IMG/VR virus record: IMGVR_UViG_2706794676_000009
DNA length: 4,501 bases
From: a virus
Lineage: Duplodnaviria > Heunggongvirae > Uroviricota > Caudoviricetes
Direction: 5' to 3' (one strand)
Every line of letters begins with the position of its first letter. The stretch's first letter is position 1. Below, piece by piece: positions 788 to 3,723 of the stretch. The position numbers were made by a program, and so were the translations under genes. Under the pieces are notes generated by a model that was not told the origin of the DNA, did not search any database, and saw nothing but the letters and a program-made list of their open reading frames with translations.

Positions 788-1037
788 NNNNNNNNNNNNN
801 NNNNNNNNNNNNNNNNNNNNNNNNNNNNNNNNNNNNNNNNNNNNNNNNNNNNNNNNNNNNNNNNNNNNNNNNNNNNNNNNNNNNNNNNNNNNNNNNNNNN
901 NNNNNNNNNNNNNNNNNNNNNNNNNNNNNNNNNNNNNNNNNNNNNNNNNNNNNNNNNNNNNNNNNNNNNNNNNNNNNNNNNNNNNNNNNNNNNNNNNNNN
1001 NNNNNNNNNNNNNNNNNNNNNNNNNNNNNNNNNNNNN
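788..1037. other. unresolved or masked sequence (250 N)
   Basis: Uninterrupted run of n. It covers the 3' end of the hok-like gene and the junction to the next gene. Confidence 0.97.
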
Positions 1038-1141
1038 CGGATTCGTACCTCACAGAGGTCTTTCCTCGTTACCAGTGCCGTCACTATGACGGTTAAACAG
1101 ATGACGATCAGGGCGATTAACATCGCCTTTTGCTGCTTCAT
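1038..1141 (-). CDS. hokD: Hok/Gef-family type I membrane toxin, 5' portion only (3' end lost in N run)
   Basis: ATG at 1139-1141 preceded by AAGGAG 9 nt upstream. The 34 visible residues MKQQKAMLIALIVICLTVIVTALVTRKDLCEVRI, plus an unambiguous Arg from CGN at the gap edge, match my recollection of E. coli HokD (RelF) residue for residue and show the hydrophobic helix followed by the RKDLCE motif typical of Hok proteins. The symbol rests on recalled sequence, not a search. Confidence 0.75.
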
Positions 1142-1214
1142 AGCCTGCTTCTCCTTGCCTTTCGGCATGTAAGAGGCTAACCTACATGTGCAAAGCATGA
1201 AATTGGCCTCAGAT

Positions 1215-1249
1215 TAATGTTAAGCGTCTTGCCGGACGCGTAATGTTAA
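1215..1249. repeat. imperfect palindrome TTAAGCGTC-n6-GACGCGTAA (1220-1243) bracketed by direct repeats TAATGTTAA (1215-1223 and 1241-1249)
   Basis: Read directly from the sequence. Located in the hok 5' leader, about 75-110 nt upstream of the hok ATG. Confidence 0.5.
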
Positions 1250-1262
1250 CTGGGGCTTTTCT

Positions 1263-1299
1263 CTATCTGCCTTTTGGTGTTCATGCCTGAAGCAGATAG
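1263..1299. repeat. inverted repeat CTATCTGC-n21-GCAGATAG
   Basis: Perfect 8-bp arms at 1263-1270 and 1292-1299, read directly from the sequence. Lies between the candidate promoter and the hok ATG. Could be an RNA stem in the leader or a dimeric protein-binding site. Confidence 0.5.
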
Positions 1300-1317
1300 C
1301 CTCAAGCACCCGCAGTC

Positions 1318-1347
1318 ATTCTACTTACCTCGCCAATATGAAATCAA
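1318..1347 (-). promoter_or_regulatory. candidate sigma70 promoter for an independent hok transcript
   Basis: On the minus strand: -35 TTGATT (1342-1347), 18-nt spacer, -10 TAGAAT (1318-1323). It lies just downstream of the QueH-like stop and would give a leader of about 170 nt before the hok ATG. Pattern match only. Confidence 0.3.
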
Positions 1348-1368: not shown

Positions 1369-2055
1369 TCACTCCTTCTCTTCTTTACCGTAGTGGAGTT
1401 GACCAATTTTGATAAGAGGGCGTCCCTGAGATTTGCGGTGTAGATTGGTATCGCGCAGAGAATACACACAGCCACAATATTCCTGCTGATAGAATTTTTC
1501 GCGCTTGCTGATTTCAATCATACGGGACGAGCCGCCCTGCTTGCGCCAGTTATAATCCCAGTACACCATGCCCGGATAATGCGCGACGGCTCGCCGCCCA
1601 CAGTCGTTAACCTGCTGCATATTTTTCCAGCGTGAAATGCCCAGTGAACTGCTGATCACACTGAAACCATTTTCAGCGGCGTACAGCGCTGTCCGCTCAA
1701 AACGCATGTCAAAACACATGGTGCAACGGATCCCTCGTTCGGGCTCCCATTCCATTCCTTTGGCTCGTTCAAACCAGTTGTCTGTGTCGTAATCAGCATC
1801 AATAAACGGCACGCCGTGTTGTTCAGCAAAGCGAATATTCTCATCCTTACGAATTAAATACTCTTTCTGAGGATGAATGTTCGGGTTGTAGAAAAAGATG
1901 GTGTAGTCGATTCCCGAGGCCTGAAGCGCCTCCATCACCTCACCGGAACATGGAGCACAGCAAGAGTGCAGTAGTAGTTTGTTTGCCCCGTTTGGGAGCT
2001 CCAATTTGGGCCGTTTGAAATCAGCAACTGTCATAAATATGTTTATTGGGGTCAT
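1369..2055 (-). CDS. DUF208/QueH-like protein (candidate cobalamin-independent epoxyqueuosine reductase)
   Basis: 228-aa ORF, ATG at 2053-2055, stop TGA at 1369-1371. Motifs [11 protein letters not shown] near the N-terminus, [18 protein letters not shown] in the middle and [12 protein letters not shown] near the C-terminus fit what I recall of the QueH family (clustered Cys ligands for an Fe-S centre). No Shine-Dalgarno before either the first ATG or the second at codon 8. Confidence 0.5.
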
Positions 2056-2202
2056 AAAAATATCAAAGAGTGTAGCATTAGAACGGGGCTATCGGAAACA
2101 GATGTGTGACTGCTCCCCGCCCTTTCGGGTGGTCTCCTGATGATTTGAGGGTGCAGAAATCCCTCCGGTTAAGGATTAAATTTTTAACAGTGCTAAATTT
2201 AA

Positions 2203-2616
2203 TTATTCAGTTCTGGATTTTGTCGCCCTGCGTATCCGCGCTTTCGCGTTACGCTCAATCTGTATCAGCTTTTCTATATTTCTCCGCCTTTCCTGTTCCT
2301 CCTGGCGCAATAGCCTTACATCATCTGCCAGTCTGGTTTCTCTTTTTGCCACAGAGAGCATCCAGTCAAACGGCTCCACAACCGCACCGCAGATTTTACA
2401 GCGGACCTGACGCTCTTTTTCGTCAACCCGTACAGAGGCGTGATGGCAATATGGTCTTTCCGATGGCTCATAAAGAAAATTAACCTGATTACGAGGGTCA
2501 TCCTCTTTTACCGGAAATAAAACGATATTGCTTAACTCATCTTCTGGTTTTATTTCCATGCTCCTCTCCTTTGATGCGAATGCCAGCGGTAATTGAAGCC
2601 TGATAGCTAATTTCAT
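2203..2616 (-). CDS. hypothetical protein with putative zinc-ribbon (CHH...C-x2-C) and charged C-terminal helix
   Basis: ATG at 2614-2616 directly abuts the TGA stop (2617-2619) of the upstream gene, suggesting translational coupling. An alternative start at ATG 2557-2559 has a strong AAGGAG 6 nt upstream and would give 118 aa. Contains YCHHASVRVDEKERQVRCKICG and an Arg/Glu-rich C-terminus (RLLRQEEQERRRNIEKLIQIERNAKARIRR). Stop TAA at 2203-2205. Confidence 0.55.
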   Translation of the reverse strand: MKLAIRLQLPLAFASKERSMEIKPEDELSNIVLFPVKEDDPRNQVNFLYEPSERPYCHHASVRVDEKERQVRCKICGAVVEPFDWMLSVAKRETRLADDVRLLRQEEQERRRNIEKLIQIERNAKARIRRATKSRTE

Positions 2617-3053: not shown

Positions 3054-3723
3054 CTACTTAACAACCCTCGAATGGCTAACATTCGGACGCCAGCTCTCCC
3101 AGTTAAAATTCACCCAGCGNNNNNNNNNNNNNNNNNNNNNNNNNNNNNNNNNNNNNNNNNNNNNNNNNNNNNNNNNNNNNNNNNNNNNNNNNNNNNNNNN
3201 NNNNNNNNNNNNNNNNNNNNNNNNNNNNNNNNNNNNNNNNNNNNNNNNNNNNNNNNNNNNNNNNNNNNNNNNNNNNNNNNNNNNNNNNNNNNNNNNNNNN
3301 NNNNNNNNNNNNNNNNNNNNNNNNNNNNNNNNNNNNNNNNNNNNNNNNNNNNNNNNNNNNGATAGCTGCCGCTAAGTGATTCTTCCCGGTACCAGGTTTT
3401 CCGCTGAACGCAAAATTTGTACACCCGGTCATCAGTTCATCGGCGATGGATTTCGCCTGGCTTAACGCGTATCGCTGGCCGTCGTTCTGCACCTGGTAAT
3501 TCGCAAACGAGCATTTACGGTGCAACGGCTGGATGCCTGAGCGATTCAGAATTTTTTCCACCCGCAACTGGCGATTCAGGCGGTTGATCTCCTCGCTACG
3601 TTTCTGGCCTTCAGCAAGTTGCCACTCGCGCCACTCCGCTACCGTTCTGAATGGGGCGGTTACATGTGGCGGGGTCAGTCGGCGGATGCGTTCCAGAACG
3701 CCGCCTGTCGCAATATTTTTCAT
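3054..3723 (-). CDS. DnaC-like replicative helicase loader (AAA+ ATPase), interrupted by N run
   Basis: ATG at 3721-3723 with GGGGG 9 nt upstream, 6 nt after the initiator stop. N-terminal 121 aa end in the Walker A motif FSGKPGTGKNHLAAAI and follow E. coli DnaC closely (NRSGIQPLHRKCSFANYQV vs DnaC NRSGIRPLHQNCSFENYRV). After the gap, the frame ending TAG at 3054-3056 encodes WVNFNWESWRPNVSHSRVVK, which matches the DnaC C-terminus (WVIFNWDSYRSRV). The track's stop at 3103 is a frame artefact of the gap. The span is 670 nt, not a multiple of 3, so the gap length is not exact or there is an indel. Confidence 0.8.
3120..3360. other. unresolved or masked sequence (241 N)
   Basis: Uninterrupted run of n inside the DnaC-like gene, immediately after the Walker A motif. 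Confidence 0.97.

Follow-up and report, generated by a model that had tools for sequence, protein, structure and literature searches.

QueH in the nin region of Escherichia coli lambdoid prophages, a probable cobalamin-independent enzyme of queuosine synthesis

The queH locus and its prophage setting

The window analysed here is a stretch of 4,501 nucleotides from a virus of the Caudoviricetes (IMG/VR record IMGVR_UViG_2706794676_000009). In the ORF listing of the window, an ATG-initiated frame encoding 228 amino acids occupies positions 1369..2055 on the minus strand. An earlier note on this DNA had given these coordinates, leaving the strand unstated, and had quoted three cysteine clusters in the 228-aa product; all three are present exactly as quoted (Table 1). 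The true start is most likely Met8, at window position 2034, which would give a 221-aa protein. Three observations lead to this assignment. Codons 2-7 of the 228-aa frame carry 1-4 non-synonymous changes in 14 sites among four copies, at a rate more than 20-fold that of the remaining gene, for which dN is 0.002-0.012 among the same four copies. The starts of the chromosomal queH homologues align with the second ATG (window 2034), and the residues preceding Met8 have no counterpart in these homologues. Finally, the PGAP annotation of the corresponding region of NZ_CP065613.1 likewise begins at the second ATG. The 221-aa product is identical to RefSeq WP_012421537.1, 'epoxyqueuosine reductase QueH'.

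Upstream of queH, the preceding ORF on the same strand stops at 2203, leaving the 147-bp spacer that the earlier note had described, as counted to ATG 2055; counted from Met8, the spacer is most likely 168 bp long. None of the sequences GGAG, GAGG or AGGA occurs within 20 nt upstream of ATG 2055 or ATG 2034. The absence of a Shine-Dalgarno sequence, also noted earlier, is therefore real, but it does not mark the gene as foreign cargo, as had been proposed. Indeed, an Erwinia-like chromosomal queH has no Shine-Dalgarno sequence either, and that of Providencia has only a weak AAGAA. Since a weak or absent Shine-Dalgarno sequence is common to the chromosomal homologues, it is a trait of the gene.

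Positions 1200-2250 of the window are 99.9% identical to E. coli FDAARGOS_944 (NZ_CP065613.1), where queH lies in a lambdoid prophage of ~30 kb integrated beside ybhA/modC. This prophage starts with genes for an integrase, an excisionase, RecE/Gam, repressor/Cro, YdaT and replication functions, including the DnaC-like ydaV. Its middle part comprises DUF977, a small zinc-ribbon ORF, queH, hokD, DUF1367, DUF1364 and a DUF1133 Q-like protein, followed by four tRNAs, holin, lysozyme, terminase, and head and tail genes. The gene queH accordingly belongs to the nin region of this lambdoid prophage, with the replication genes on one side and hok/sok on the other. The view of the gene as prophage cargo between a replication module and a toxin gene is thereby confirmed, with ydaV, DUF977 and the zinc-ribbon ORF on the upstream side and hokD and sok on the downstream side. 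The tRNAs of the prophage are Gly-UCC, Thr-UGU, Arg-UCU and a CAU tRNA. A link of queH to these tRNA genes was considered and discarded, as none has a GUN anticodon and none is a Q substrate. The pairing of queH with hok recurs in E. coli 042 and SCU-171. The cultured temperate phage HannyBb has it as well, but there ~370 bp of inserted DNA separate the queH stop codon from hok/sok. The hok/sok locus is a neighbouring module and not part of queH.

To define the boundaries of the insert, the window was aligned with E. coli 042, SCU-171 and phage HannyBb. Homology among these four contexts begins at ~2107, ~50 bp upstream of the first ATG. Beyond this point, two unrelated alternative flanks are found among the four contexts, and in most genomes the megablast match extends no further than window 2105. 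Because the shared homology starts near 2107 while the upstream flanks differ, queH is, by this alignment, a discrete cassette of ~740 bp (window 1369 to ~2107). The 147-bp spacer, which had been read as a sign of independently acquired cargo, is such a sign in part only: the proximal ~50 bp travel with the gene, and the rest belongs to the phage module. Rfam finds no riboswitch or known RNA in the spacer, the only hit being sok downstream.

Table 1. Features of the queH locus, in window coordinates
Feature	Position	Strand	Remarks
queH coding sequence, from the likely start Met8 to the stop	1369..2034	minus	221 aa; Pfam, PGAP, dN/dS and homologue N-termini
21 nt between ATG 2055 and the likely start	2035..2055	minus	Probably 5′ untranslated leader, not coding
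Cys cluster 1, HSCCAPCS, aa 30-37 (C32, C33, C36)	1945..1968	minus	Aligns with T. maritima C9, C10, D13
Cys cluster 2, RCTMCFDMR, aa 110-118 (C111, C114)	1702..1728	minus	Aligns with T. maritima C87, C90
Cys cluster 3, EYCGCVYS, aa 192-199 (C194, C196)	1459..1482	minus	Aligns with T. maritima C169, C171
TGCTACACT, extended -10-like element, putative native queH promoter	2069..2077	minus	34 nt upstream of the Met8 ATG
Conserved leader of the queH cassette	2035..2107	minus	Homology across prophage backgrounds starts near 2107
Distal spacer, part of the upstream phage module	2108..2202	minus	Shared with SCU-171 only; unrelated sequence in E. coli 042 and HannyBb
Small GAAA-loop hairpin in the distal spacer	2117..2132	minus	Spacer folding not significant (z = -1.2)
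hok/sok type I toxin-antitoxin (sok RNA and hok start)	1136..1311	minus	Rfam RF01794 (sok), 117 bits; hokD annotation

The conserved leader contains a candidate promoter element. The sequence TGCTACACT fits the extended -10 pattern TGnTAnnnT and shows no change across four different prophage contexts. Chromosomal queH has TGCTACA[AC]T 33-36 nt before its start in Scandinavium, Kluyvera, Enterobacter and Symbiopectobacterium. More generally, 18 of 77 homologous loci have TGnTAnnnT with its end 33-40 nt upstream of the start, as compared to 1.2% of random windows of equal size, and CTACACT is kept at the same place in several Erwinia and Pantoea loci. A generic sigma-70 scan called no promoter upstream of queH, TGCTACACT included. 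Because the leader keeps the same -10-like element as chromosomal queH, it is likely that a native promoter was captured together with the gene, with TGCTACACT as its putative element; expression in the lysogen would then be possible.

In its organization, queH recalls the morons and nin-region accessory genes of lambdoid phages, as it forms a separate unit of variable occurrence, inserted between phage modules that are conserved. It may further resemble a moron by its putative promoter and by a function that would serve the lysogen rather than the virion. Unlike morons, it shows neither a terminator of its own nor an atypical base composition: no terminator-like site was found after queH, and the GC content, 0.45-0.51, is as in the flanks, so that composition does not mark a recent acquisition. 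Moreover, the cargo is a housekeeping tRNA-modification enzyme and not a virulence or exclusion factor.

Family, fold and cysteine ligands

The earlier note had associated the protein with QueH, the cobalamin-independent epoxyqueuosine reductase, and had proposed a Pfam search, a structure prediction and an inspection of the metal ligands. Each of these analyses points to the same family. Pfam gives a single match, to PF02677 QueH (DUF208), with 220.6 bits against a cut-off of 23.5 (E = 1.9e-65), spanning profile positions 1-174 of 175, that is, a strong match over the full length of the domain. The family is characterised by a [4Fe-4S] cluster, an additional iron and the lack of cobalamin; in the window protein, Pfam finds no cobalamin-binding domain, nor any second domain. 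NCBIfam shows no match at E <= 0.01, yet PGAP labels the identical protein WP_012421537.1 as QueH; the name evidently stems from another type of evidence. A phmmer search against PDB sequences retrieves only the QueH of Thermotoga maritima (7lc5 and mutants, E = 5e-22).

An AlphaFold2 model was built from 25 homologues (mean pLDDT 76.5, pTM 0.77). When this model is compared to the PDB with Foldseek, the best five entries are all T. maritima QueH: 7lc7, 7lc5, 9d86 (C9S), 9deu (with queuosine) and 9dco (D13N), at E = 1.5e-11 to 4e-10 and with target TM-scores of 0.80-0.84 (0.82 at E = 1.5e-11). The next class, at ~1e-4, consists of LarE, TtuA, TilS and argininosuccinate synthetase, which are generic adenine-nucleotide alpha-hydrolase folds. 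The predicted fold thus matches QueH and no other family. With T. maritima QueH (PF02677; EC 1.17.99.6; PDB 7lc5, 7lc7, 9deu), the window protein shares the domain from end to end as well as the fold, at an identity of only ~30-33%. It differs from the T. maritima enzyme by a C-terminal extension of ~25 residues, common to proteobacterial QueH.

The conserved cysteines also align with those of the solved enzyme. C32, C33, C111, C114, C194 and C196 match T. maritima C9, C10, C87, C90, C169 and C171 residue for residue. To tally residues across the family, 1.84 billion cluster representatives were searched, giving 4755 matches at E <= 0.001, and the best 150 of these (37-82% identity) were aligned to the family profile. 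Among these best 150 of 4755, cysteine is found at position 32 in 116/117 representatives, at position 33 in 117/117, at position 111 in 136/141, at position 114 in 133/137, at position 194 in 77/78 and at position 196 in 78/78, so that each of the six aligned cysteines is at least 96% conserved. At position 36, the same set has Cys in 113/117 and Asp in 3/117. The window protein carries the family-consensus residue at all seven positions (C32, C33, C36, C111, C114, C194 and C196). It also keeps the near-invariant residues N57, N59, E65, Y66, R69, E106, R110, S141, K144 and Q191.

Position 36 deserves a comment. The window protein has Cys36 where T. maritima QueH has Asp13, for which the deposited mutant 9dco (D13N) carries Asn. 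Considering the consensus tally, Cys36 is the family norm in the aligned set and Asp13 the minority form; the exception is the T. maritima enzyme, not the window protein. As the solved enzyme has an Asp, the metal-site geometry of the 'CCAPC' majority is not directly represented among the PDB entries found. Details of QueH as an iron-sulfur epoxyqueuosine reductase, including the roles of individual ligands, were reportedly worked out by Zallot in 2017 and Li in 2021.

Altogether, Pfam, the aligned cysteines and the fold support membership of the QueH/DUF208 family, and none of the outcomes that the earlier note had named as refuting was observed. The gene very probably encodes an intact, canonical QueH, which would be catalytically active.

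Chromosomal relatives, selection and distribution

Outside E. coli, the window protein has its closest relatives among the chromosomal QueH proteins of a wide range of Proteobacteria. Identity reaches 92% with Scandinavium, 91% with Kluyvera and 89-90% with Enterobacter. It is 87% with Symbiopectobacterium, 86% with Erwinia, 83-86% with Providencia/Proteus, 82% with Serratia, 80% with Photorhabdus, and 76-79% with Sphingomonas, Stenotrophomonas and Rhizobium. The chromosomal proteins of Enterobacterales are near-identical to the prophage one and have the same length and start; their genes have no strong Shine-Dalgarno sequence and have TGCTACA[AC]T ~34 nt upstream of the start, as in the prophage copy. 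The settings differ. Chromosomal queH is found among housekeeping genes, for instance purL-queH-glrK-glrR-glnB-hmp-glyA in an Erwinia-like genome and tmcA-DUF441-queH-ECF transporter-purC in Providencia, whereas the window gene lies inside a lambdoid prophage, beside hok/sok. In Scandinavium and Enterobacter, queH is accompanied by dehydrogenase, DeoR, LysR and glycosidase genes, and no phage genes were seen in the neighbourhoods inspected. Four E. coli phage copies, each taken from a different prophage background, have dN/dS of 0.02-0.06 at dS of 0.09-0.27. By these comparisons, the window gene is a mobilised conserved housekeeping enzyme and not a fast-evolving paralogue.

Whether the host has queG had been raised earlier, together with the statement that enterobacteria normally reduce epoxyqueuosine (oQ) with QueG. 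In E. coli the statement is correct, as queG (K-12, b4166) is present in 5426/5426 complete genomes (at least 95% identity and at least 80% coverage). It does not extend to the many Enterobacterales that have a chromosomal queH, among which are Enterobacter, Kluyvera, Erwinia, Providencia, Serratia and Photorhabdus. Since queG is universal in E. coli, every host of a queH prophage also has the B12-dependent enzyme, and this queH coexists with queG in every E. coli genome carrying it. QueG of E. coli, which depends on cobalamin and Fe-S, catalyses the same reaction as QueH, from oQ to Q on tRNA. It is however unrelated to QueH in family and fold, needs B12, and is encoded by a core chromosomal gene. 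QueH is considered a non-orthologous replacement for QueG (PMC5372724). As a counterpoint to the explanation preferred below, the universality of queG would make QueH redundant whenever B12 is available, perhaps often in the gut.

The queH coding sequence is found in 995/5426 complete E. coli genomes (18%), as compared to 4352 genomes matched by the flanking hok region. Carriers almost invariably have one copy, on the chromosome, and three occurrences are on plasmids; O157:H7, O104:H4, APEC and UPEC strains are among these carriers. One partial match apart, no truncated queH occurs among 40 sampled matches. All the queH matches listed are annotated 'epoxyqueuosine reductase QueH'. Hence the identity of the gene is already known: RefSeq has the identical protein, under the name QueH, in about a thousand complete genomes of E. 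coli. The annotation on the phage side is different. A collection of 50,697 phage records contains one E. coli phage with queH, HannyBb, in which the gene is annotated 'hypothetical protein'. In PHROGs, queH belongs to phrog_3217, 'unknown function'. The phrog_3217 profile lacks the first Cys motif and opens at residue 34 in the numbering of the 221-aa protein, as would be expected if many phage genes had been called from an internal Met, with loss of that motif. Membership of a defence system was considered and discarded, as PADLOC returned no match. In the searchable library, a literature search for QueH/DUF208 with phage or prophage found no description of a phage-borne QueH, and no QueA, QueG or QueH homologues were reported in the viruses analysed by Hutinet et al. 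(2019; PMC6884629).

Possible role in the lysogen

Considering these data, the following scenario may be envisaged. The gene queH would have been captured from the chromosome of a relative within the Enterobacteriaceae, together with ~50 bp that comprise its leader and promoter, and the cassette would now reside in the nin region of lambdoid prophages. By homology, QueH would hold an iron-sulfur centre on the conserved cysteines. It would act, as established for its family, on nucleotide 34 of tRNA-Asp, -Asn, -His and -Tyr, where the epoxide of oQ would be reduced to the cyclopentene of Q in a cobalamin-independent reaction. Lysogens could thereby complete Q in two ways, one of them without B12, so that full maturation of their tRNA to Q would remain possible under a shortage of corrinoids or a block in their import. 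It is quite probable that the prophage gene is a canonical, functional QueH, captured with its leader, that would support B12-independent conversion of oQ to Q in lysogens; it would be active, may be expressed from its own promoter in the lysogen and might confer a fitness benefit. In particular, at 79-92% identity to chromosomal QueH, the window protein would likely reduce oQ to Q, as by complementation of queG.

E. coli does not synthesize B12 de novo. According to the title of Frey et al. (1988), as cited in PMC5372724, the conversion of oQ to Q in tRNA of E. coli and Salmonella is a reduction that depends on cobamide. Put together, these two circumstances make a B12-independent Q route the most economical account of what the prophage provides. 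One may go further and imagine a lysogenic-conversion gene which, from its own promoter, renders the final Q step independent of B12, of the corrinoid supply and of the BtuB importer; this fuller version is tentative. The earlier suggestion that the phage could control the queuosine status of the host tRNAs has to be narrowed. Because QueH acts only after the host Tgt and QueA, it can alter oQ versus Q, and such a shift is possible, but not G versus Q; the effect on decoding of NAU/NAC codons that the earlier note had proposed would be hypothetical.

Another possibility, which appears rather unlikely, is that queH is an auxiliary gene of the lytic cycle, transcribed only in the delayed-early rightward nin transcript after induction and tuning the Q status of host tRNAs to the translation of late phage genes. 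Such a role would suit its location, with the replication genes on one side and the Q-like antiterminator on the other, and its orientation, which is that of the early-right operon; the generic scan places no sigma-70 promoter or terminator on either side of the gene. However, the leader keeps the -10-like element of chromosomal queH at the same distance, which expression by read-through would not need. In addition, the conversion of oQ only would restrict a lytic use to a host already starved of B12, and the phage's own tRNAs are not Q substrates. Read-through in the lytic cycle and expression in the lysogen are compatible and not mutually exclusive. Expression in the lysogen could also be without consequence: queH would then be a functional enzyme of no benefit beside QueG, hitch-hiking with prophages and with the adjacent hok/sok. 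Such a redundant gene fits the presence of queG in every complete E. coli genome, the tight linkage to hok/sok in all contexts examined and the single E. coli phage with queH among 50,697 phage records. It fits poorly with the strong purifying selection, as the dN/dS values across four prophage backgrounds argue for sustained selection on the protein. The near absence of truncated copies in the sample and the occurrence in 18% of genomes, of diverse pathotypes, also speak against it. Altogether, a mere passenger is quite improbable.

The earlier note had given equal weight to a diverged DUF208 paralogue with another substrate. A 7-deazaguanine base in phage DNA or another epoxide would be examples of such a substrate. 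Phages do use 7-deazaguanine chemistry for DNA modification (PMC6884629), and the sole solved QueH has Asp13 in place of the Cys at position 36. This Cys is however the family norm (113/117 representatives among the best 150 of 4755), and the 80-92% identity to housekeeping chromosomal QueH, together with the strong purifying selection, contradicts the idea of a diverged paralogue. Furthermore, phage systems for 7-deazaguanine DNA modification comprise DpdA and the preQ0 synthesis genes (FolE/QueD/QueE/QueC), whereas none of DpdA, FolE, QueC, QueD and QueE is annotated in the FDAARGOS_944 prophage (NZ_CP065613.1), which renders a role in DNA modification unlikely. The survey of DNA-modifying viruses by Hutinet et al. 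(PMC6884629), without any QueA, QueG or QueH, and the PADLOC result weigh in the same direction. On these comparisons, a diverged paralogue is effectively excluded and would be extremely improbable.

Identifying the gene from its sequence adds nothing new in itself. The carrier aspect is under-appreciated; together with the possible physiology it is under-described, yet it is not surprising in kind. If the B12-independent route exists in lysogens, no earlier case of a phage contributing an enzyme dedicated to the tRNA-queuosine pathway would be on record, the 2019 survey of PMC6884629 having reported none, and ~18% of E. coli strains would differ from the others in the oQ/Q status of their tRNA under B12 limitation. 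In E. coli, a purely phage-borne tRNA-modification enzyme would duplicate the core QueG step, with an iron-sulfur centre instead of B12. Provided that queH is expressed in lysogens, it would offer a simple example of a prophage altering the epitranscriptome of its host.

Linkage of queH to a hok/sok module

On its 3′ side, queH directly adjoins a type I toxin-antitoxin module of the hok/sok kind, identified by an Rfam sok match of 117 bits, and this linkage is kept in all four contexts examined (the window, E. coli 042, strain SCU-171 and phage HannyBb). The hok ORF starts near window position 1141, on the minus strand, and extends into a masked stretch; ORFs spanning either of the two N runs carry X residues in their translations. 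In the cultured temperate phage HannyBb, an insertion of about 370 bp (L002, about 8690-9060) separates the queH stop codon from hok/sok. Its annotated ORFs are only tiny, and the three E. coli chromosomal copies lack it.

Features of the window and of related loci (L001, prophage of E. coli FDAARGOS_944; L008/L009, Providencia chromosome)
Feature	Location	Strand	Remarks
N run	window 788-1037		covers part of the hok region
N run	window 3120-3360		covers part of DnaC-like ydaV
hok/sok	window 1136-1311	minus	
Promoter-like site	window 1347..1318		TTGATT-18-TAGAAT, just upstream of hok/sok
Distal spacer	window 2108-2202	minus	two small hairpins
Hairpin CCACCCGAAAGGGCGG	window 2117..2132		within the distal spacer
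ORF upstream of queH	window 2203-2616	minus	137 aa
Four-tRNA cluster	L001 17271-17581		Gly-UCC, Thr-UGU, Arg-UCU and a CAU tRNA; downstream of a Q-like gene
queH locus	L008/L009 3265-10391		chromosomal, Providencia

Upstream region and prophage tRNA cluster

The distal spacer is common to the window and SCU-171, with unrelated sequence in its place in E. coli 042 and HannyBb, and it looks like a junction of phage modules. No significant folding was seen for this spacer (z = -1.2), nor does it contain a T-run that would point to a terminator. The 137-aa ORF lying upstream shows a weak match to a TFIIB-type zinc ribbon, under the Pfam cut-off, and is assigned to phrog_1621, labelled as of unknown function; PGAP places its start later, giving 118 aa.

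None of the four tRNAs clustered in the prophage L001 belongs to the queuosine family. The CAU tRNA is named Ile by PGAP, and only two of the four are present in E. coli 042.

queH in annotation resources and in other genomes

The queH gene (window 1369-2034) is unrecognised in phage-centred annotation. Its PHROG family, phrog_3217, is labelled 'unknown function'; the family profile begins only at residue 34 (of 221) and so leaves out the CCAPC motif. The HannyBb copy (L002 8001-8687) is annotated as a hypothetical protein.

Two contigs with queH homologues, L084 and L038, appear mislabelled: the record titles name Bacillus subtilis SK7B5 for one of them and Pseudomonas lundensis I31 for the other. 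They probably represent assembly contamination, since queH and its upstream region match a Stenotrophomonas locus in the SK7B5-titled contig and a Serratia locus in the I31-titled one.

Among the 1017 queH places found by searching complete E. coli genomes, three are on plasmids, which may be phage-plasmids, and the rest are chromosomal. In Providencia, queH is flanked on one side by tmcA (tRNA-Met cytidine acetyltransferase) and a DUF441 gene. On the other side are a gene for a PCC-domain protein and genes for a transporter of the ECF type that includes two ABC ATPases; this transporter might import queuosine precursors.
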